Below, one piece after another: positions 33,579 through 43,465 of a stretch of DNA of 59,654 nt. The notes under the pieces were generated by a model. It did not search any database. It was not told the DNA's origin and saw only the letters and a list, made by a program, of their open reading frames with translations. Positions within the stretch are counted from its first letter, which is position 1. Each line of letters opens with the position of its first letter. This DNA is from Desulfobulbaceae bacterium (GTDB lineage Bacteria > Desulfobacterota > Desulfobulbia > Desulfobulbales > Desulfobulbaceae). Location of the stretch: the NCBI GenBank assembly GCA_030613515.1, contig JAUWLT010000001.1, positions 1 to 59,654 on the forward strand, in the 5' to 3' direction. The translations under genes and the position numbers were made by a program.

Positions 33579-33634
33579 CTGAAGGGACTCAGTAGGGCTA
33601 GCATCTTTTTTTCATGGAAATTATTATCTCTGAA

Positions 33635-35115
33635 TCAATGTCATTAACTTAAGATTTCTTTCGAATATATTATTGTAAAAACAGCATGTTAATGTTATAT
33701 TTCAGCACAGATCGTTATCCAAATCTACCTATTCACACAAGGAGAGAGACATGGCTGAATTATTTCAAAAGAATCACCAAACTGGCACAGAATCTGATTT
33801 TCAATACATGTGCCAATCTTATTAATTTCATTAAAAATATTATATATTCGCAAGAATTTCTCGAAATAAGCCGAAAAAACAATAAAGACTTTTCACGCAC
33901 CAGAAAATTGCCATTTGCGCTCCTTGTTCTCTATTTGTGCAACCTCACCAAAAGCTCATACCAACCAGAGCTGAACAAATTCTTCAAAATCCTTACCAGA
34001 TCCACCGTAGCGAAAAATATTGTAAGCAAGGTAGCCCTTTGCAAAGCAAGAAAGAAGCTAAAATATGAGGCGTTTACAGATCTAAACAAACAGTCTGTTG
34101 AATACTTCAATGCCAACTTCAATCCATCAAAATGGAATGGCTTCTTTCTGAAAGCTGTGGATGGTTCTACAGTTAAGTTGCCAGATTTTCCAGAGATCAG
34201 TGAACATTTCGGGACATGGAATCCACGGAAAGGTAATCCTTTTCCAATGGCTCGTATTTCTCAAATGTTTGATCCTCTCAATAGGGTTACAACCCATGCC
34301 CTGATCAGTCCCAAAAGTGTGGGAGAAAGGGAAATGGCAGCCAATCATTTTGAACATCTCACCGATCAGGATCTTGTCTTGTTGGATCGTGGTTATCCTG
34401 CATTCTGGCTTTTTAAACTCATCCTTTCTTATAATGCACATTTCTGTTCCAGAATTTCCATCAAAAAATGGAAGATTGTTCGTGAGTTTATTAGTTCTGG
34501 TAAACAGGAGCAGATTGTTTCGATAGAGGCTCCCACTACGTCCATTGCTGCTTGCCAGGAGTATGGGTTGGATCTATGCCCTATGAAATTACGCCTCATC
34601 CGTGTGGAATTGGACTCTGAAGAACCAGAAGTCCTCATTACATCGCTACTCGACAGCGAAAAATATCCAACTGATCTATTTGCCGAACTCTATCACGACC
34701 GTTGGCCTGTGGAAGAAGATTACAAGGTGATGAAGTGCAGGATAGAGCTGGAAAACTTCTCAGGAAAAAGTTCATTGTCAGTTTACCAGGATTTCCACGC
34801 CCGCACATTTTCAAAGAACATCACTTCAATGCTTGCCTTTGCCGCTCAACCAATCGTAGAAGAAACAGCAAACGACAAGGAACACAACTACAAAATCAAT
34901 TTCACTCAGGCTCTTTCAACAATGAGAGATACCATCGTGATACTATTGGTTAAATCAACTACAGCGATTCAGAGCATTGTCTCCGATATTCTGGATACAT
35001 TTGCTATGGCAACCGAACCCGTTCGACCGGGAAGAAAATTTCCGCGTAATCATAAAAGAGCGCAGAGGAAGTATTGTTTGAATTACAAACCAATTCTTTA
35101 AGTTAATGACATTGA
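33635..35115 (+). mobile_element. intact IS4-family insertion sequence (about 1.48 kb)
   Basis: 18-bp perfect terminal inverted repeats TCAATGTCATTAACTTAA (33635-33652 with 35098-35115). It is flanked by an 8-bp direct repeat TCTCTGAA (33627-33634 and 35116-35123) and is more AT-rich than its flanks. Confidence 0.88.
33686..35101 (+). CDS. IS4-family DDE transposase
   Basis: DDE candidates are LKAVDGSTVKLP, LVLLDRGYPAF and the YHDRWPVEEDYKVMK (Y-R-E-K) block. The stop lies inside the right inverted repeat. Confidence 0.85.
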   Translation: MLMLYFSTDRYPNLPIHTRRETWLNYFKRITKLAQNLIFNTCANLINFIKNIIYSQEFLEISRKNNKDFSRTRKLPFALLVLYLCNLTKSSYQPELNKFFKILTRSTVAKNIVSKVALCKARKKLKYEAFTDLNKQSVEYFNANFNPSKWNGFFLKAVDGSTVKLPDFPEISEHFGTWNPRKGNPFPMARISQMFDPLNRVTTHALISPKSVGEREMAANHFEHLTDQDLVLLDRGYPAFWLFKLILSYNAHFCSRISIKKWKIVREFISSGKQEQIVSIEAPTTSIAACQEYGLDLCPMKLRLIRVELDSEEPEVLITSLLDSEKYPTDLFAELYHDRWPVEEDYKVMKCRIELENFSGKSSLSVYQDFHARTFSKNITSMLAFAAQPIVEETANDKEHNYKINFTQALSTMRDTIVILLVKSTTAIQSIVSDILDTFAMATEPVRPGRKFPRNHKRAQRKYCLNYKPIL

Positions 35116-35229
35116 TCTCTGAATCAGAGTCAAGAATTTTTGGAAGCATGGTGACCACGATTGCCCGACCGCATTTGAAATGCACTGGGGCCATCTACGC
35201 CAAAAAAATCAGTTTACATTGCCAAATAA

Positions 35230-36717
35230 TCATTGACTATCAATATAATCACTTGGACCTGCCCCAAACATAGAAAACAGGACGGCAGGACGCTCTTCCC
35301 CTGGTTCTGGTTCAGAAGATTCAATCGTTTCTTTTATCGGGCCGGAAGCTTTTACCCTTAAAATTTGACCGACCTTTAATTTGTGAGGTGCTGTCAATAC
35401 ATCATTATTTAATTCGTAGATCTTTTTCCACTTTTGGACGGTACCAAACAACTTTTGAGAAATTATGCCAAGAGAGTCACCCGATTGTACAGTATAGGTT
35501 CCATCCTCATTCAAAACAAGCAGGGAAGTAGACGAGCCAGGTGACAAAGGAACATTCCCCGTCTCTGAAAAAGTTGGAATGGCCAGGGTCATTCCAACTC
35601 GCAGCCCATCGGGATTATTTGCAAGTTGATCCTTATTAGCATTTGCGATGGCTGACCATTTAGAGGATATACCATATACCTTCAAGGAGATGAATCCAAG
35701 AGTATCACCAGGTTGTACTGAATAAACAGATTCAACAGAGTTCTTCCGGCTGGAGGACATTTCAAATGGTGACTCATCTTGTTGTTTAACCTCGGGTTTT
35801 GTTTGTTGAGGTTGTTCAGAGTCATCCACTGTTATACGGTTAGCAACATAGTCCTGCAATTGAGGAGTACTCTTTTCACCCATTGTTTCTTCGGGTCTCC
35901 GGACTATATCAGCAGTGGGCTGAATATCCTGATGAATGGTAAACTCACCCTCAGCACTGCTGGTATCTCCGATCTTTTTTTCCATTTGAAGGAAAGAAAC
36001 CGGCACCGGAGATAAGCTCTCTTTCCGGTTAAGCTGCAGCTCAGTAAACGAGACGGTTCTTTTCTTCCGGGTAGACCCGGCGGCCTGTTCAGAGAGTTTC
36101 TGCTGTTTACCTTCCTCCTCTTTTGACAGTGCTTTTTTTCGTGTCTGCTGTTGCAGAGCAGTTGTTTTATCCTTTTCTGTAAAGGTTAAGTAAAAATTAT
36201 CCGTGTAGAACAACCCTGCTCCGACCATTATCAGGAGTAGAGAAAAACAAGCGAACAGGGGTAACCATTCACGATATCGCCCTGATTGAGAAGACGTTGT
36301 CAGCAAGGCAGGTTGATTATCTTGTCTGCTCATTCTGCGTTTAGCACGATGTTCCAGAGCCCGGACTAAGGTTATGGCATCATCAACTCTCCTGAGTGCT
36401 TCAGGAAGCTCTGGATAATCAATGGCAATATCTTCTACTTTTTTATACTTCTCACGGGCCAGTTCCAGTTTTCTCTCAGTTTCAAGGGTATCGGCCTCAC
36501 GAAAATATTTTTCTGCCTGCTCAACCAGAGCGGAAAGCTGTTTGCTGATTCTTTCCCGGTCATCTTTTTCCATCTCTACTGCTGATTCCTGAAAGAGTCG
36601 GTTGGCCTCAGCTACGTGCTTTTGTCGAATTTTTTCTTGAATAACATCTGCCGACTTTTCTGTATGCAGAGATTTTTCATGTAAATCAACAAGTTGAATC
36701 GTGTTTGTTATCGACAT
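35230..36717 (-). CDS. coiled-coil / single-TM protein with two C-terminal LysM peptidoglycan-binding domains
   Basis: N-terminal charged helical region, TM WLPLFACFSLLLIMVGAGLFY, a low-complexity linker, then YSVQPGDTLGFISLKVYG... and YTVQSGDSLGIISQKLFG... (LysM x2). Confidence 0.8.
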   Translation of the reverse strand: MSITNTIQLVDLHEKSLHTEKSADVIQEKIRQKHVAEANRLFQESAVEMEKDDRERISKQLSALVEQAEKYFREADTLETERKLELAREKYKKVEDIAIDYPELPEALRRVDDAITLVRALEHRAKRRMSRQDNQPALLTTSSQSGRYREWLPLFACFSLLLIMVGAGLFYTDNFYLTFTEKDKTTALQQQTRKKALSKEEEGKQQKLSEQAAGSTRKKRTVSFTELQLNRKESLSPVPVSFLQMEKKIGDTSSAEGEFTIHQDIQPTADIVRRPEETMGEKSTPQLQDYVANRITVDDSEQPQQTKPEVKQQDESPFEMSSSRKNSVESVYSVQPGDTLGFISLKVYGISSKWSAIANANKDQLANNPDGLRVGMTLAIPTFSETGNVPLSPGSSTSLLVLNEDGTYTVQSGDSLGIISQKLFGTVQKWKKIYELNNDVLTAPHKLKVGQILRVKASGPIKETIESSEPEPGEERPAVLFSMFGAGPSDYIDSQ

Positions 36718-36992
36718 ATTATCACAAGATGATTAATAATTGCTTTCAGGGCAGCTGGCCGGGAAGATATAAGAAGCATTCTGAGATTGTCCGACTCCGC
36801 AATCTTTTCCAGTGGCTGCCCTGAAGGATAGTCGCATTTTGGAGACATCATGATGATGGTTACACCTTGATGCCCATAAACCCAAATTTGTTTATTTCGT
36901 TCTATGGTAATAGCTCGCAGAAAACCTCTTCTTTTGCCACACTGTTGCAAAAGAATTTCAACAAAATGATGAGTAGTACAAATTTCTTGCAA
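36708..36992 (-). CDS. hypothetical small protein (doubtful)
   Basis: 94-aa ORF with a TTG start that overlaps the LysM gene start by 10 nt. I recognise no motif. Confidence 0.2.
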   Translation of the reverse strand: MQEICTTHHFVEILLQQCGKRRGFLRAITIERNKQIWVYGHQGVTIIMMSPKCDYPSGQPLEKIAESDNLRMLLISSRPAALKAIINHLVIICR

Positions 36993-37290
36993 ATTTTACG
37001 CCAACTGTAATACTGTGGGTTGTTAACACTATACAGATGAATTTCAGATCTTTTCAAGATTTTTTCATTGGATCACATTGAAATATTTCCGATTTTCTGG
37101 ATGGTATTCCGGAAAAGTGAACATTTTCGAAAATATATTCGAAAAAAGCAGGGGAGGGGTAACCAGTGGTAATCAAACCCTGATTGGGATTTTGTCAAAC
37201 GATGTGCAACAAACTGATTGTCAGGTTTTATCTCGTCTTACTTTCGGAAATACGTCAGATCAAATCTGAACCACTCCACTTTATGAAACC

Positions 37291-38850
37291 TTATTTTTTC
37301 TGCTGGACATAGCGAATCATCTGGCTTGGGGTAAGTTTGGAATTTGAAGGGCCTGAGCGGATGAAAAATTCTTCGTTCTTGCCTACTTTCAGGAAAACCG
37401 GTTTGCCGGCAGGCTGACAGTCTACAACGACGATTTTTTTGTCTTCAATTTCTACTAAAGTGAAGTCGGCGAAATCGGAAAATTCTGCTCCTACGTGCTG
37501 ATTGAAAAGATTTTTTATGTGGAGCAGACATCGGTCGTCATTTTCAAAGTTATCCGCTTCAAGACCATAAATTCCGCCGTCATCGGCTACCCCGATGAGC
37601 AGGGTGCCTCCATCACTGTTGAGAAAGGCAATGACGGCTTTGAGCCAGGCAAATTCAATTTCCTTGCCGGCTTTGCCGTTTTTCAGGTTTATGCGGACTG
37701 TGGATTTAAATTCGATGTTGCTTCCTTCACCTTCGTTGATCAAGGAATGAACTTTGAGTACCGGGTCCTCCTGTTCAGGACTCCGTGCTGATCGTAGACC
37801 TCCGTTCAGCCAGATTAGCAGCAGCATGGCGCCGCCACCGGCACAGGCGACAAGCAGGTCAATCAGATCGATATCAAACAGTGTGCTGTTTAAACCGGCA
37901 ACAAGTTCCTTTTCAGAGGCGGCTACGCCAACCCAGATAACGGAATTATGCTTCAGCATGGGTTTGAACGTTGCCAGCCATTGCTGTTTGTTGTTCTGCA
38001 ATCTCACAACCTGTCCGGCAGGTTGATCAGCTTTCTTCCACCGGCTGATCAGTTCAGAGATTGGGGCAGGGGATACGTCTTCTTCTCCAACCTCAGCACC
38101 GTCCCCCAGTATAAAATAGTCGGAATAGGGATTGACTAAAAACAGAATTCCCCGACGTGTTCTATCTTTTGCCTTCAACAGTTGGCGGAGTTCCTTTATG
38201 GGAATGTCAATGGCAAAAACAGCAAAGTCGTTTTCCGTATCAGCAATATCCCAGGAAACAGAAGCGCTGATTCCCTTGATTTTTGTTTCATAAAAGGTGT
38301 AAACCGATGTCCAGTAAATTGAATCCTCTTTTTCTGAGCGGTGAAACCAAGGCCGTTTTACCGGGGAATAATCACTTTTCTTCTGCCACTCCTTTATTAG
38401 TTTGTCAGGTTCCTGCCAGCGTTGATAGAGCAGGTTTCCCTTCTGGTCTGCAGCTCGGGTTCTGGTCACCCATGAGGATTCATCCGGGCGCAGGTAGTAT
38501 TCCCACCCCTTGTTGTCAGCCAACAGAATACCTGAAAGTGGTGCCTGATGTTCAATCAGAGGCATTAATTGTTTATTCAAGCCGATTGTGTCATTACGGT
38601 CCAGAACACCATTGCGGGCCCAATCCCGAACTATTTTAAGTTTATCTGATATTGAATCAAAAAAACTCTGCATATCACGGAGCTCGGCATCACTTATTTC
38701 GTTGATTACCGGACCCGCCAGGTTGGATTTCAATTTGAAAAACTGATAGCCGTTGAGTGCCATCAGGATGACCAGAAAACCGGCCAGAGGAATAAGGATG
38801 GCTCTCAGTCGTGGCATGGATAGGCGGCGCCTGGTTTGTCCCTTGTTCAT
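37291..38850 (-). CDS. transmembrane receptor: TM - periplasmic Cache-like domain - TM - cytoplasmic AlbA_2 (Schlafen-type) domain
   Basis: TM1 LRAILIPLAGFLVILMAL. Cache signature: VKRPWFHRSEKEDSIYWTSVYTFYETKIKGISASV. TM2 LIDLLVACAGGGAMLLLIWL. AlbA_2 motifs: GSNIEFKS, AFLNSDGGTLLIGVADDGGIYG, EFFIRSGPSNSKL. Confidence 0.7.
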   Translation of the reverse strand: MNKGQTRRRLSMPRLRAILIPLAGFLVILMALNGYQFFKLKSNLAGPVINEISDAELRDMQSFFDSISDKLKIVRDWARNGVLDRNDTIGLNKQLMPLIEHQAPLSGILLADNKGWEYYLRPDESSWVTRTRAADQKGNLLYQRWQEPDKLIKEWQKKSDYSPVKRPWFHRSEKEDSIYWTSVYTFYETKIKGISASVSWDIADTENDFAVFAIDIPIKELRQLLKAKDRTRRGILFLVNPYSDYFILGDGAEVGEEDVSPAPISELISRWKKADQPAGQVVRLQNNKQQWLATFKPMLKHNSVIWVGVAASEKELVAGLNSTLFDIDLIDLLVACAGGGAMLLLIWLNGGLRSARSPEQEDPVLKVHSLINEGEGSNIEFKSTVRINLKNGKAGKEIEFAWLKAVIAFLNSDGGTLLIGVADDGGIYGLEADNFENDDRCLLHIKNLFNQHVGAEFSDFADFTLVEIEDKKIVVVDCQPAGKPVFLKVGKNEEFFIRSGPSNSKLTPSQMIRYVQQKK

Positions 38851-38874
38851 GGAGATTGTATTCGTTGGCTTATT

Positions 38875-39690
38875 TCAGCGATTAAATACGTTTTTAAAAA
38901 AAGGTATCCAGCGGATAAGCATTTTTTTGAGGCGGCCGTCTTGTTTGATTGCAGCCAGGTAGGCGTTGGCGGTCTGTTGAAGTACGGTATCATCTTTACG
39001 CACTCCCCACCCAATTTGTTCCCTGGTCATAGGTGTGGTTACGGGAGCCAGCCCATTTGCCTCATTTTGGGCGGCAAAGTAAAAATTCATGGGCAGGTCA
39101 TAGACAAAGGCATCAATCTTTTGTGCAAGTAAGGCTTTGACACCCTGTTCAGGTGTTTCAAAACCGGTAAAGCGTTGTTTTCTGTCCGTGGCCACATTTT
39201 TTTCAATGAAAAGATCACCGGTTGTGCCTTTTACCGTACCGATTTTGACTGTGGGATTAAGTAAATCCGTAAATCCATTACGGTATCGGTTCATATCTGT
39301 AAGTCGTACCAGGGAGACCTGACCGCTGATCATATATGGATTGCAGAAGGCTATTCTGTAAAGCCTGGCATCGGTAATGGTCATGCTGGACATGATAATA
39401 TCGGTTTTGCCGGCAAGCAGAGCAGGGATCTGGTCTATCCACTTAAGTTCGACAAAACGCACCTCTCTGCCGGCAAATTGTGCCAGGCCACGGGCAAATT
39501 CCGCCTCCAGGCCGGTTACCTGACCCCGCTCTTTATAGGCTGTGGGGGGGGCATTGGGAGTTATGCCTACCCGCAGAATTTTTGTATTGGTGGCAGGAAT
39601 GGAGCCTGTGTTATAGTTGTTCTGCACACAGGACGACAGGCTAAAGAGTATGAAAGAAGATAGAATTACAGAAAGAAAATAACGAATCAT
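38875..39690 (-). CDS. lipoprotein, family-3 (amino-acid type) solute-binding protein
   Basis: Lipobox LFSLSSC. ILRVGITPNAPPTAY..., GLEAEFARGLA, GKTDIIMSSMTIT. ATG at 39690 is preferred over the longer ORF from 39738. Confidence 0.8.
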   Translation of the reverse strand: MIRYFLSVILSSFILFSLSSCVQNNYNTGSIPATNTKILRVGITPNAPPTAYKERGQVTGLEAEFARGLAQFAGREVRFVELKWIDQIPALLAGKTDIIMSSMTITDARLYRIAFCNPYMISGQVSLVRLTDMNRYRNGFTDLLNPTVKIGTVKGTTGDLFIEKNVATDRKQRFTGFETPEQGVKALLAQKIDAFVYDLPMNFYFAAQNEANGLAPVTTPMTREQIGWGVRKDDTVLQQTANAYLAAIKQDGRLKKMLIRWIPFFKNVFNR

Positions 39691-39786
39691 AAATAAACCT
39701 ATTTGGTAACTATTCAGGCCAGTGCAAAAAACCTGCACCTACCTCGGAATATAACTGTTCAGATGGGGTGTAGCTGAACAGTTACC

Positions 39787-40287
39787 CTATTTGCTGATGG
39801 TGCCGTCAATAACACGGCCCTGGGAAATAAAGGAAATACCCTGCTGCATCTGGGTTCCGATCATGACGGACTCGACAATGGGCTCGGAAACAGGTTTTTC
39901 AGCACGCCAGTGGACAAGAAATTTGGCACCGGATCCGCCTGCTCTGTCAGACTCCGGGACAATATACCGAATGGAAACCAGCGGGTCAACCGGGACAGGT
40001 TTGTCAATATAACTTCGCAGTTTCTTACCATGGGAATCGTAATAATCCACTATATCCAGAACAATAGATGCTTTGGGATCCGTGTTGCGAATGGACAGTG
40101 TGGCGGTTAAATCAAAAGGCTTATCCTTATACCGGTCATCAGCATAAATGTGAGAATAAAGCGGTACATAAATGGACTGATTCAACCAGCGGCTTATATC
40201 ACCGGCATGAAGCGTGGTTACCGCGGTCGTAAAAAGGATGATAGCGCCGATCAAGATCAAGGTATGGACTGTTTTGCCGTGTAGCAT
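39787..40287 (-). CDS. DUF3124-family exported protein
   Basis: 166 aa with a signal/anchor helix. SIYVPLYSHIY...LSIRNTD...IVDYYDSHGKKL...FLVHW resembles DUF3124 proteins. Confidence 0.6.
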   Translation of the reverse strand: MLHGKTVHTLILIGAIILFTTAVTTLHAGDISRWLNQSIYVPLYSHIYADDRYKDKPFDLTATLSIRNTDPKASIVLDIVDYYDSHGKKLRSYIDKPVPVDPLVSIRYIVPESDRAGGSGAKFLVHWRAEKPVSEPIVESVMIGTQMQQGISFISQGRVIDGTISK

Positions 40288-41193: not shown

Positions 41194-41233
41194 GCAGCAG
41201 GTGAGCGACAGGTACCTGTCGCTCACCTGCTGC
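41194..41233 (-). terminator. perfect 40-nt palindrome, intrinsic terminator of the rubredoxin gene
   Basis: GCAGCAGGTGAGCGACAGGT/ACCTGTCGCTCACCTGCTGC. On the minus strand it is followed by UUUUCAUUAU, 8 nt past the rubredoxin stop. Confidence 0.7.
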
Positions 41234-41240
41234 AGAAAAA

Positions 41241-41399
41241 TCAGTCAGCCTCGTAGAAATTCTCTTTTTCAGCCTGACACTTCGGGCAGACCCAATCATC
41301 GGGCAGATCTTCAAACGCGGTGCCGGGATCAATACCGTTTTCAACATCACCTTCTTCAGGGTCATAGATATATCCGCAGGGACATTCGTACTTTTTCAT
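41241..41399 (-). CDS. rubredoxin (52 aa; below the ORF-track length cutoff)
   Basis: My translation: [52 protein letters not shown]. It has the two CxxC knuckles (CPCG, CPKC) and the conserved YIYDP, DPGT and FEDLPDDW blocks. Confidence 0.92.
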
Positions 41400-41710: not shown

Positions 41711-42022
41711 ATGTATGCTATAATTCGTACCGGTGGCAAACAGTATCAGGTTGCAGCCGGTGATACACTTCGTGTTGAAAAATTGCAGGGCGAAGTAGGT
41801 GAAACCGTAGAACTTTCCGATGTGTTGTTGGTTGCTGATGGCGATGATGTTAAGGTTGGCAAGCCGATGGTAGGCGGTGCCAGGGTTGTTGCCAAAATTG
41901 CCGAGCAGGGTAAGGCGAAGAAAGTACTTGTCTTTAAGAAGAAAAAACGCAAAGGCTATCGTGTACTTCGTGGACATCGTCAGCTGTTTACCGCCCTGAG
42001 CATTGAAGAGATCATAGCATAA
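41711..42022 (+). CDS. rplU: 50S ribosomal protein L21
   Basis: [25 protein letters not shown]...; 103 aa. Confidence 0.97.
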
Positions 42023-42058
42023 TTTTTCGTTTTTAGTTTCATTTTTGGAGATATATCC

Positions 42059-42316
42059 ATGGCACATAAAAAAGCAGGTGGTAGTTCAAGGAACGGCCGT
42101 GACAGTGCGGGCCAGCGGCGCGGAGTAAAGCGCTTTGGTGGAGAGACTGTCCGTGCCGGCAACATCATTATTCGTCAGTTAGGCACGAAAATTCATCCCG
42201 GTGAAAACGTTGGTTGTGGTCGCGATTACACCCTGTTTGCAAAGGTTGATGGTGTCGTAACGTTTGAAGCCTTTGGCAAGGGACGTAAACGGGTATCCGT
42301 CTATCCTGCAGCCTGA
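42059..42316 (+). CDS. rpmA: 50S ribosomal protein L27
   Basis: [28 protein letters not shown]...; 85 aa. Confidence 0.97.
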
Positions 42317-42389
42317 TTTATTTTTCCCTAAGCCGGGAAAAGGCTGAAGATTTTCCGGCTGCGATCCTTTAGTTGCAGTCGGAGCTGTC

Positions 42390-42427
42390 AACTCGACATC
42401 AATATGATTGGTGTCGAGTTTTTTTTT
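42390..42427 (+). terminator. intrinsic terminator/attenuator between rpmA and obg
   Basis: AACTCGACATC...GGTGTCGAGTT stem followed by a run of 9 T. Confidence 0.65.
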
Positions 42428-42451
42428 GAGGTTTGGGGACAAAAATAAAAA

Positions 42452-43465
42452 ATGGGCTTCGTTGATGAGGTAAAATTTTTCGTCAAGGCCGGGGACGGCG
42501 GTAACGGCTGTGTAAGTTTTCGTCGGGAAAAATTTGTGCCCAGAGGCGGCCCCAACGGTGGAGACGGCGGGCGTGGCGGATCGATATTCCTGGAGGCCGA
42601 TCCGCGCAAGCACTCCCTCATCGATTTTCGCTACCGTTCCCATTTCAAGGCCCAGCGCGGAGGAAACGGTCAGGGAAGTGATAAACACGGGCGCAGCGGC
42701 AAAGACACCGTAGTCCTTGTTCCTGCAGGATCTGTGGTCAAGGACGCTGAAACCGGACAGGTACTGGTCGATCTTATCGACCCGGGGCAACGATTTACAG
42801 CAGCCCGGGGGGGTAAGGGTGGTTTTGGCAATGCCCGTTTTGCAACTTCCACTAACCGCGCACCGCGCAAGGCTACTCCCGGTACAGTCGGTGAAGAGCA
42901 CTGGCTTAAAGTTGAGCTCAAACTGCTGGCGGATGTCGGTCTCATAGGGTTGCCCAATGCCGGTAAGTCCACCCTGCTGTCAAGATTGTCAGCTGCAAAT
43001 CCCAAGGTGGCTCCTTATCCCTTTACCACCCTTGCCCCGCAGCTCGGTGTCCTGCAGTTCAAATACATGGATCCCTGTATCATTGCCGATATTCCCGGCC
43101 TGATCAAGGGCGCAAGCGAGGGGGTAGGGCTCGGTCACCAGTTCCTGCGCCATGTTGAACGGACAACTATCCTGCTCCATATCATTGATGCAGCCGGTGA
43201 GGAGGATCGACCTTTTGCAGATTACCAGGTTTTAGTCAGAGAGCTTGAGGCCTATAACGAGGAGTTGAGGGACCGTACCTATCTTATTGTGCTGAACAAG
43301 ATCGATTGTATTGATGCGGACAGACTGCAGGAAGTGAGGACCATGTTTACTGACCGGGGGTTGGATGTCCTTGCAGTTTCCGCGAAAGAAAAGACAGGTA
43401 TTGATAACCTGAAAGAGTACCTTGCCGATATCCTGGAAGAACAGCGGGAGCTTGCGAAACAATGA
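42452..43465 (+). CDS. obg: GTPase Obg/CgtA
   Basis: FVDEVKFFVKAGDGGNGCVSFRREKF (Obg fold), G1 GLPNAGKST, G3 DIPG, G4 NKID. Confidence 0.96.
   Translation: MGFVDEVKFFVKAGDGGNGCVSFRREKFVPRGGPNGGDGGRGGSIFLEADPRKHSLIDFRYRSHFKAQRGGNGQGSDKHGRSGKDTVVLVPAGSVVKDAETGQVLVDLIDPGQRFTAARGGKGGFGNARFATSTNRAPRKATPGTVGEEHWLKVELKLLADVGLIGLPNAGKSTLLSRLSAANPKVAPYPFTTLAPQLGVLQFKYMDPCIIADIPGLIKGASEGVGLGHQFLRHVERTTILLHIIDAAGEEDRPFADYQVLVRELEAYNEELRDRTYLIVLNKIDCIDADRLQEVRTMFTDRGLDVLAVSAKEKTGIDNLKEYLADILEEQRELAKQ

Follow-up and report, generated by a model that had tools for sequence, protein, structure and literature searches.

A transmembrane dCache receptor from Desulfobulbaceae with a Schlafen/AlbA_2 domain as its sole cytoplasmic module: a candidate ligand-gated endoribonuclease

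We report a transmembrane (TM) receptor from a Desulfobulbaceae bacterium that joins a periplasmic dCache sensor to a Schlafen/AlbA_2 domain, which is its sole cytoplasmic module. The gene lies on a 59,654-nt stretch of DNA (GenBank assembly GCA_030613515.1, contig JAUWLT010000001.1, positions 1 to 59,654 of the forward strand), hereafter called the window, and encodes 519 amino acid (aa) residues on the minus strand (37291-38850). Profile, fold and family evidence establish this architecture. Because the sole cytoplasmic module has an intact metal-dependent nuclease site, a regulated endoribonuclease is the most likely output as judged from the sequence, and control of transcription is less likely. 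In the mechanism that we propose, partly by analogy, the receptor would be a dimeric, ligand-gated transmembrane endoribonuclease that senses amino acids and probably acts on tRNA. We give this whole chain of steps a probability of about 0.5.

Architecture and distribution of the receptor

An earlier reading of the window, made without database searches (the sequence-only reading), had proposed the layout TM helix, Cache region, TM helix and AlbA_2 domain, with genes for a lipoprotein of the solute-binding protein (SBP) type and a DUF3124 protein upstream. The open reading frames (ORFs) of all three genes are where that reading had placed them, and the layout was recovered by Pfam (PF04326 and PDC_1), hydropathy (two TM segments), AlphaFold and Foldseek. 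In Pfam, residues 375-506 match SLFN_AlbA_2 (PF04326; E=4.7e-21, 75.9 bits against a cutoff of 25.3), and residues 146-222 match MCP-like_PDC_1 (28.5 bits against a gathering cutoff of 27). Both a C-terminal PF04326 match and a Cache-type match in the periplasmic part, which had been expected from a profile search, were thus obtained. The dCache_1 match is weak in the window receptor and is called in many relatives. A local match to the phosphodiesterase GepA (NCBIfam) covers the Cache region only and lies far under the cutoff; it was set aside as uninformative.

A hydropathy scan gave exactly two TM segments (residues 15-33 and 329-347). As six Lys/Arg residues precede TM1, the N-terminus is inside; residues 34-328 (about 295 residues) are periplasmic, and residues 348-519 (172 residues) are cytoplasmic. 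Residues A335 and G338 of TM2 are near-invariant in the family. The linker at residues 348-372 has no Pfam match, and Pfam finds no helix-turn-helix (HTH) family in the receptor. The cytoplasmic part consists of the linker and AlbA_2 alone, without the winged-helix/HTH DNA-binding domain of ToxR/CadC-type regulators. From an alignment of 93 sequences, AlphaFold gave a confident full-length model, with a mean predicted local distance difference test (pLDDT) value of 82. In this model, a long N-terminal helix leads into two PDC modules of the alpha/beta type; TM2 comes next, and a short linker modelled with low confidence joins it to a compact alpha/beta domain. Within the linker region, residues 352-359 have low pLDDT and are followed by a helix at residues 363-373.

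A word-indexed search with the receptor gave 371 matches. The best 120 are all 501-568 aa long and contain PF04326, most of them together with dCache_1 and/or PDC_1, and come from Desulfobulbaceae and other Thermodesulfobacteriota. The database names of relatives are generic ('putative DNA binding domain-containing protein', 'RNA-binding domain-containing protein [Desulfogranum marinum]' or 'hypothetical protein'). A scan of one genome per GTDB species yielded 95 relatives, 80 of which were kept for analysis. Most are from Desulfobulbales, and full-length relatives at 26-35 % identity were found in Myxococcota, Chromatiales, Aquificales, Desulfuromonadales, Thermodesulfatator and Bacteroidota. 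In pairwise comparison, the Schlafen module is on average 69 % identical (minimum 57 %), the periplasmic region 39 % and the linker 34 %, and the long invariant runs are located in the cytoplasmic domain. Desulfogranum marinum DSM 2058, a cultivable strain, has an orthologue with the same SBP/DUF3124 context.

The cytoplasmic Schlafen domain

When a profile of the cytoplasmic domain was compared with solved structures, the best matches were SLFN14 (1e-7), rat SLFN13 (3e-7) and SLFN12 (8e-7), followed by SLFN11 and SLFN5 (range 1e-7 to 1e-3). A separate model of residues 359-519 was obtained with a pLDDT of 86 and a predicted TM-score (pTM) of 0.83. Its top 20 matches in Foldseek are exclusively AlbA_2/Schlafen-fold proteins (probability about 1.0), among them C. 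diphtheriae DIP2311 (3LMM, TM-score 0.61), the SAMD9 DNA-binding/tRNase domain and SLFN11/13/14/5. The comparison with Schlafen and AlbA_2 structures that the sequence-only reading had suggested thus gave the expected matches. The motifs that it had pointed out (GSNIEFKS, AFLNSDGGTLLIGVADDGGIYG and FFIRSGPS) are present as well, and all of them fall in invariant columns of the family.

The segment E375-GSNI-E380-F-K382 aligns with the TES..VEFK segment of SLFN14/SLFN13 and also with SLFN12. The sequence (V/I)AFLN falls on the SAFAN box and, together with SDGGTLLIGV, aligns with SAFANTQGGYLLIGV. The third acidic residue, D423 within GVxDxG, aligns with the second Asp of GVDD in 5yd0, 9nyy and 9jr9. 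We take its counterpart to be D248 of rat SLFN13, after removal of the 13-residue tag offset of the 5yd0 construct, and we take the published triad of this protein to be numbered E205/E210/D248. Residues E375, E380, K382, R386, N388, F409, N411, G415, G420 and D423 are present in all 80 sequences, including those from archaea and Bacteroidota.

Prokaryotic Schlafens that have been characterised provide a standard for these residues. The signature of SLFN-pAgo consists of E(x)4(D/E)xK, the SAFAN box and a Gly/hydrophobic core (bioRxiv 10.64898/2026.05.29.728809), and the catalytic triad of the CRISPR-associated Schlafen Cash is E17/D22/K24, with Mg2+ (PMC13462974). Single-lobe prokaryotic SLFN domains are the counterpart of the mammalian C-lobe, and in Cash and RzAgo such a domain cuts tRNA only after sensor-driven oligomerisation has rebuilt the two-lobed site (PMC13462974; bioRxiv 10.64898/2026.05.29.728809). 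By its sequence, the domain of the window receptor carries every hallmark of a catalytically competent Schlafen nuclease lobe. The sequence-only reading had named nucleic-acid binding or cleavage as the output; because the nuclease triad is intact and invariant, cleavage is favoured, and binding is the less favoured of the two. A basic loop that is specific to the subfamily and five residues longer follows the EFK strand (STVRTNLKTGKxGKE, with R386, K390, K393 and K396) and is a candidate RNA-binding element.

A Schlafen subfamily used as a signalling output

The profile of the cytoplasmic domain was compared exhaustively with 1.84 billion cluster representatives by HMMER; 9053 of them match at E<=1e-3, and 844 reach E<=1e-30. 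P0256 is the only one of the best 150 matches in which the domain is not C-terminal, and about 110 of these 150 proteins are of dCache-type length. Many short matches were rejected as separate architectures, being metagenomic dCache-type proteins cut off at the N-terminus. In Thermoplasmata, Methanomethylophilaceae and Nanoarchaeota, and also in P0258, the domain is joined to a polytopic TM region. The archaeal proteins of this kind are about 380 aa long, and their Schlafen domains are 46-48 % identical to that of the window. The domain is likewise found with receiver (REC) domains, as Response_reg plus SLFN in P0207 and as REC-SLFN-REC-HD-GYP within one chain in P0256. REC-SLFN proteins of about 320-330 aa make up at least 120 clusters, mostly from Desulfobacterales, and are annotated merely as 'response regulator'. 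In an operon on a 372-kb contig (L086 1-6981), the REC-SLFN gene comes last, after genes for REC-SpoIIE, a dCache_1-HAMP-PAS hybrid kinase with Hpt and REC-HD-GYP-REC, and overlaps the preceding gene by 4 nt.

The domain is interchangeable behind dCache sensors, membrane modules and receivers and thus behaves as a signalling output. It belongs to a distinct, strongly conserved Schlafen subfamily that is used as a plug-in module of this kind. Receiver domains typically work by phosphorylation-induced dimerisation, which would fit a dimerisation-gated nuclease. The statement in the sequence-only reading that AlbA_2 proteins are soluble proved incomplete: the subfamily is mostly membrane-anchored, yet it also occurs on soluble response regulators.

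A few genes separate a REC-SLFN gene from those for an EF-G paralogue and a YbaK-like tRNA-editing protein (L088/L089 5765-8410), and rplU-rpmA-obg (41711-43465 in the window) adjoins the array that contains the receptor gene. This proximity of translation genes to SLFN signalling genes may be a coincidence.

The periplasmic sensor and its predicted ligand

In a Foldseek search against the PDB, the sensor matched dCache ligand-binding domains (E about 1e-8, probability 1.0), and the list is dominated by amino-acid receptors, namely Tlp3 (Ile/Leu/Val), Mlp24 and Mlp37 (several amino acids), PctA/B/C and CtaA. The amino-acid-binding motif of the dCache_1AA group, Y121/R126/W128 + Y144/D173, is written YxxxxRxW(Y)-[13-17]-Y-[27-34]-D (PMC8915833). 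The window sensor keeps the full motif, with Y161/R166/W168 (F169), 14 residues to Y184 and 30 residues to D215, and these residues align with those of Mlp24 (6iop). As the motif is complete, direct binding of an amino acid, or of a closely related amine/carboxylate compound, by the window dCache is most likely.

The motif residues are kept in about 57-68 of the 71 dCache members, across Desulfobulbales, Myxococcota, Chromatiales and Aquificales. Our prediction of direct amino-acid binding is for the window protein, not for every member of the family.

Genes around the receptor in the window

The features of the window are listed in Table 1, together with the archaeal genes mentioned above. 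The sequence-only reading had named two exported proteins encoded upstream of the receptor. Both the SBP_bac_3 and the DUF3124 protein were borne out, and the same-strand array has a further exported gene, SYLF, that it had not included. The gaps of 24 nt and 48 nt that it gave are correct for the longest ORFs. However, the probable start codon of the SBP is an internal ATG (39690, M17) just ahead of the lipobox LSSC, which makes the DUF3124-SBP gap 96 nt. The start of the listed SYLF ORF (41226) falls inside a hairpin, so that the true start is at about 41085. This hairpin, a 40-nt palindrome upstream of SYLF, was considered as an operator or repeat element and rejected, as it is the terminator of the rubredoxin gene (41194-41233). 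It delimits the transcription unit of the array on the upstream side, and rubredoxin is found in the same place in the related locus L001. A consensus scan found no terminator-like site in the intergenic gaps of SYLF-DUF3124-SBP-receptor, the few weak matches all being inside coding sequence, and it gave a promoter-like match upstream of DUF3124.

Table 1. Positions of the receptor gene, its parts and its neighbours in the window, and of related archaeal genes
Feature	Position	Strand	Basis
Receptor gene, 519 aa: TM1, dCache_1AA, TM2, linker, Schlafen/AlbA_2	37291..38850	-	ORF; Pfam; family of ~520-aa homologues; AlphaFold pLDDT 82
TM1, aa 15-33, N-terminus inside	38752..38808	-	Hydropathy 2.14; six K/R in aa 1-16
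Periplasmic double-PDC (dCache_1) sensor, aa 34-328	37867..38751	-	Pfam PDC_1/dCache_1; Foldseek
Amino-acid-binding motif stretch of the sensor	38206..38370	-	Published spacing; alignment with Mlp24 (6iop); conservation
TM2, aa 329-347, rich in small residues (ACAGGGA)	37810..37866	-	Hydropathy 2.12
Short cytoplasmic linker, aa 348-372, without HAMP or other module	37735..37809	-	Pfam; model; identity
Single-lobe Schlafen/AlbA_2 domain, aa 373-506, sole cytoplasmic module	37333..37734	-	Pfam; profile; Foldseek
Nuclease motif E375-x4-E380-x-K382 (GEGSNIEFK)	37705..37728	-	Published motifs; alignment with SLFN14/SLFN13; 80/80
D423, third acidic residue, within GVxDxG	37582..37584	-	Alignment with 5yd0, 9nyy, 9jr9; 80/80
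Family-3 solute-binding lipoprotein, likely start 39690, lipobox LSSC	38875..39738	-	SBP_bac_3 E=1.4e-29
Exported DUF3124 protein, signal peptide ending LHA/GD	39787..40287	-	PF11322 E=2.3e-49; hydrophobic N-terminus
Exported Ysc84/SYLF protein, first gene of the same-strand array	40375..~41085	-	PF04366 E=3e-33
Intrinsic terminator of the upstream rubredoxin gene	41194..41233	-	18-bp perfect stem and T-run
Rubredoxin gene, 52 aa, absent from the >=60-aa ORF list	41241-41399	-	ORF read directly from the sequence
IS4-family element, DDE_Tnp_1 transposase of 471 aa, perfect 19-nt terminal inverted repeats	33634-35116		
TM protein with two C-terminal LysM domains, downstream of the receptor	35230-36717	-	
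Archaeal polytopic TM-SLFN genes	L080 7350-8501; L081 4810-5943; L083 431-1606; L084 6996-8138		

The solved structures closest to the SBP are those of the cationic amino-acid binders AncCDT-1, 3k4u and ArgBP. This relationship fits the amino-acid theme but is no proof of co-sensing. The genes at 31.7-46 kb encode exporter-type ABC proteins, the IS4 transposase, the LysM protein, the receptor, SBP, DUF3124, SYLF, rubredoxin and rplU-rpmA-obg-proBA; no importer genes are found near the SBP in this region, so the SBP is an orphan and does not belong to an ABC amino-acid importer operon. We found no relative of DUF3124 in the PDB, and the sole paper mentioning DUF3124 is irrelevant here. Rfam gave zero RNA elements in the whole window.

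On the downstream side, a 573-nt gap (36718-37290) separates the receptor stop codon from the LysM gene and contains only a doubtful 94-aa ORF, no Rfam match and a promoter-like match at 37057-37028 (-). The LysM protein is 48-52 % identical in L005/L006, where the receptor is 80-90 % identical; it evolves fast and is missing from more distant loci. The IS4 element separates the LysM gene from that for the ABC exporter. More distant relatives have the exporter gene converging directly on the receptor gene. The sequence-only reading had remarked on the IS4 element next to the cassette. An association with this mobile element was rejected, as the element (33634-35116) is 2.2 kb off, on the far side of the LysM gene, and synteny with relatives extends over the wider region.

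Gene context across relatives

We compared gene contexts by tblastn of the window neighbours against all 80 loci and by clustering of the neighbour ORFs. The SBP gene is directly upstream of the receptor gene in one receptor clade only (21 of about 77 loci, window included). Within these 21 loci, DUF3124 and SYLF accompany the SBP less regularly (about 12 and about 9 loci, respectively), and the order SYLF-DUF3124-SBP-receptor recurs in L004, L006, L008, L014 and L017. About 50 other full-length relatives have neither SBP nor DUF3124. The co-occurrence of DUF3124, SBP and receptor across genomes, which the sequence-only reading had proposed as a check, is thus confined to part of the family, and a three-gene cassette as a family-wide unit was rejected.

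Most loci of the SBP clade share the synteny of the window: one flank has rubredoxin and rplU-rpmA-obg-proBA, and the opposite flank has two exporter-type ABC genes in convergent orientation. The spacing between SBP and receptor is 22-173 nt in most loci. This pairing outlasts changes of the upstream flank (a PqiB/C-like pair instead of DUF3124 in some loci) and of the downstream flank (a sugar epimerase instead of the ABC exporter in L026, L030 and L031). One locus of the clade, L018, has no SBP, and in L009, L011 and L012 a gene for a Kef-like cation/proton antiporter (~540 aa, 1.6 kb; e.g. L011 6350-7978) lies between SBP and receptor. In the SBP-linked receptors of L026, L030 and L031, the motif Arg (R166) is replaced by Thr, and the adjoining SBP is kept; their sequences hint that ligand capture may have moved to the SBP in this subclade.

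The neighbours of the relatives without SBP are clade-specific housekeeping genes (aconitase and globin, enolase, UvrC, FmdE and MoCF, an APH-type kinase, and a methyltransferase). In another receptor clade (L019, L020, L022, L023, L038, L039, L041 and L062), a same-strand pair encoding a 145-aa lipoprotein and a 613-aa exported protein without a Pfam match lies beside the receptor (e.g. L039 9556-11824), and this pair may be an alternative set of periplasmic partners. Among the 80 clustered loci, no neighbour is universal, and no inhibitor, antitoxin or kinase gene is constant beside the receptor. PADLOC, applied to the window proteins and the recurrent neighbours, gave only generic matches plus a weak local match to the SLFN part of the pAgo model. 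Since the receptor clades track housekeeping contexts, the family looks vertically inherited in core-genome positions, not in defence islands.

Proposed mechanism and alternatives

Like other dCache receptors, we infer, the protein would be an inner-membrane one-component homodimer. The dCache_1AA domain would bind an amino acid in the periplasm, and TM2 and the ~25-residue linker would pass on the changed dimer geometry. This change would make or break a productive SLFN-SLFN arrangement, so that cleavage would be switched on or off. The gated site would be the metal-dependent endoribonuclease site formed by E375, E380, K382 and D423, and tRNA would be the likeliest substrate by analogy with Cash, SLFN-pAgo, SLFN11/13 and SAMD9.

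Several points weigh against this mechanism. The predicted activity, substrate and ligand are all drawn from motif conservation and analogy. DNA binding is known for some AlbA_2 domains, as in the crystal structure of the SAMD9 DNA-binding domain, and relatives of the receptor bear the NCBI name 'putative DNA binding domain-containing protein'. A tRNase without control would be toxic to the cell, and yet the neighbourhoods revealed no conserved gene for an inhibitor or a partner. In the sensor, the auxiliary second Tyr of the motif (PctA Y129) is Phe in the window receptor. Furthermore, three Bacteroidota sensors and several Desulfobulbales paralogue clades have lost the motif and retained the Schlafen domain; therefore, amino acids cannot be the ligand family-wide.

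The DNA-binding precedents raise the alternative of a membrane-tethered, ligand-controlled regulator of the ToxR/CadC kind, whose AlbA_2 domain would bind DNA (or RNA) uncut. Consistent with such a regulator, the fold also matches the SAMD9 DNA-binding domain on DNA and putative regulators of the DIP2311 type, relatives are annotated at NCBI as DNA- or RNA-binding, and some mammalian Schlafens are without catalysis (PMC13462974). However, an E/E/D triad and a Lys that are invariant in 80 of 80 sequences from bacteria and archaea would be unneeded for binding alone, and non-catalytic Schlafens typically lose triad residues (PMC13462974). Pfam finds no HTH or other DNA-reading module, and no conserved target gene is found beside the receptor across clades. 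We consider a purely binding regulator unlikely. A role in defence, in which an envelope or phage cue would trigger tRNA cleavage and kill or arrest the cell as in Cash and SLFN-pAgo, appears quite improbable. It is true that the experimentally characterised prokaryotic Schlafens that we found all defend by tRNA cleavage, and the weak PADLOC match to the pAgo model points in the same direction. But the synteny is with housekeeping genes (rplU-rpmA-obg-proBA, ABC exporters, aconitase, enolase, uvrC), the receptor clades track their contexts as expected of vertical inheritance and not of defence islands, and PADLOC finds nothing meaningful among the neighbours. The sensor, moreover, has a small-molecule amino-acid pocket, and the sister architectures are classical phosphorelay response regulators.

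Another alternative concerns how the ligand is perceived in the window clade. The sequence-only reading had suggested SBP-assisted sensing. In the form considered here, the ligand-bound SBP would dock on the dCache domain in the style of LuxP/LuxQ or TorT/TorS, and DUF3124 and SYLF would be further periplasmic subunits. No importer genes accompany the orphan SBP, its adjacency to the receptor lasts within the clade though the flanks change, it is retained in the three loci where the motif Arg has become Thr, and the intergenic gaps of the array have no terminator-like site. All of this would suit joint sensing. On the other hand, about 50 full-length relatives have no SBP, L018 has lost it, and the antiporter gene is interposed in L009, L011 and L012. 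Since the adjacency arose a single time, it may instead be explained by shared ancestry, and the window dCache retains the complete motif for direct binding. We therefore regard SBP-dependent sensing as possible but rather doubtful. What stands of the suggestion is a pairing that survives flank changes in one clade; a requirement for the SBP does not stand, as the dCache domain has the full amino-acid motif. The orphan amino-acid-type SBP may be a clade-specific accessory that presents or widens ligands, and SBP-mediated sensing in the window clade is compatible with a ligand-gated endoribonuclease.

If the receptor is such an endoribonuclease, the extracellular amino-acid level would govern Schlafen cleavage of tRNA/rRNA and so tune translation, without a second messenger or phosphorelay, and the subfamily would be an unrecognised output class of one-component receptors and REC-SLFN proteins with a role outside defence. 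We put forward this wider view tentatively, at somewhat less than even odds. Were it true, RNA cleavage would join kinases, cyclases, phosphodiesterases, phosphatases, chemotaxis and DNA binding among the outputs of transmembrane and two-component systems, and prokaryotic Schlafens, so far characterised solely as anti-phage effectors, would have been recruited for environmental sensing in core-genome contexts. The receptor would then offer a simple, testable case of extracellular control over RNA cleavage, with one polypeptide whose amino-acid ligand and catalytic triad are both predicted and with a host that can be cultured, and the REC-SLFN response regulators would be a soluble, phosphorylation-controlled sister system for biochemistry.

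Comparison with known systems

Full-text literature searches gave no paper that joins AlbA_2 with Cache, Schlafen with dCache or, relevantly, a response regulator with AlbA_2. The survey that accompanied Cash covered 926 SLFN homologues picked for their proximity to defence systems and sorted them into seven clusters, none membrane-bound or Cache-linked (PMC13462974). The SLFN-pAgo census of 103,533 proteins highlighted the GHKL fusion 'Schlatpase', and the word 'transmembrane' is absent from its text (bioRxiv 10.64898/2026.05.29.728809). The sequence-only reading had called the design undescribed, and this agrees with the full-text searches, which found no describing paper, and with the silence of the texts of these two 2026 surveys of prokaryotic Schlafens. 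The architecture is visible in public databases with correct Pfam calls, yet it appears to be uncharacterised and undiscussed.

Among reported dCache_1AA receptors (PctA, Tlp3, Mlp24/37 and CtaA), the TM1-dCache-TM2 layout, the fold and the Y/R/W...Y...D motif are those of the window receptor, and the outputs described for this group are methyl-accepting chemotaxis proteins, histidine kinases, GGDEF/EAL, cyclases, HD, Ser/Thr kinases and SpoIIE, with no nuclease or Schlafen (PMC8915833). The window receptor differs from them in its Schlafen output and in having no HAMP domain. In Ire1 and RNase L, ligand- or stress-driven dimerisation controls a fused RNase, in Ire1 across a membrane. The likeness of the window receptor to these proteins is a functional analogy only, as the folds and lineages are unrelated and the receptor has no kinase module.

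The mammalian SLFN11/12/13/14 and the tRNase domain of SAMD9 have a catalytic lobe homologous to that of the receptor, with E, E and D aligning position by position. Mammalian Schlafens and SAMD9 cut tRNA or rRNA and thereby shut down translation. Whereas mammalian Schlafens are cytosolic and have two lobes per chain plus helicase or other domains, the receptor has one membrane-tethered lobe.

Of the prokaryotic systems, SLFN-pAgo/'Schlatpase' (SLFN plus GHKL ATPase; bioRxiv 10.64898/2026.05.29.728809) shares with the receptor the AlbA_2 fold (TM-score 0.61 to 3LMM), E(x)4(D/E)xK, the xAFxN box and the Gly/hydrophobic core, and its dimerisation rebuilds the two-lobed architecture of mammalian SLFN. 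The receptor has no GHKL ATPase, HTH or Argonaute and has the longer basic loop, and oligomerisation would come from the receptor dimer, or from the receiver domain in REC-SLFN, not from ATP binding. Cash (SLFN plus Csx15) is alike in its single-lobe SLFN, its E...(D/E)xK metal site and its fused small-molecule sensor, and its tRNA cleavage needs sensor-driven assembly of SLFN-SLFN interfaces (PMC13462974). Unlike the receptor, Cash is soluble, perceives intracellular cyclic tetra-adenylate (cA4) through the Rossmann-like Csx15 and belongs to type III CRISPR loci (PMC13462974). The receptor has an extracytoplasmic dCache_1AA domain across the membrane, a C-terminal SLFN domain and housekeeping loci. 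Relative to the sensor-coupled prokaryotic Schlafen nucleases, what is new in this subfamily is the extracytoplasmic or phosphorelay input and a context of signalling instead of defence.

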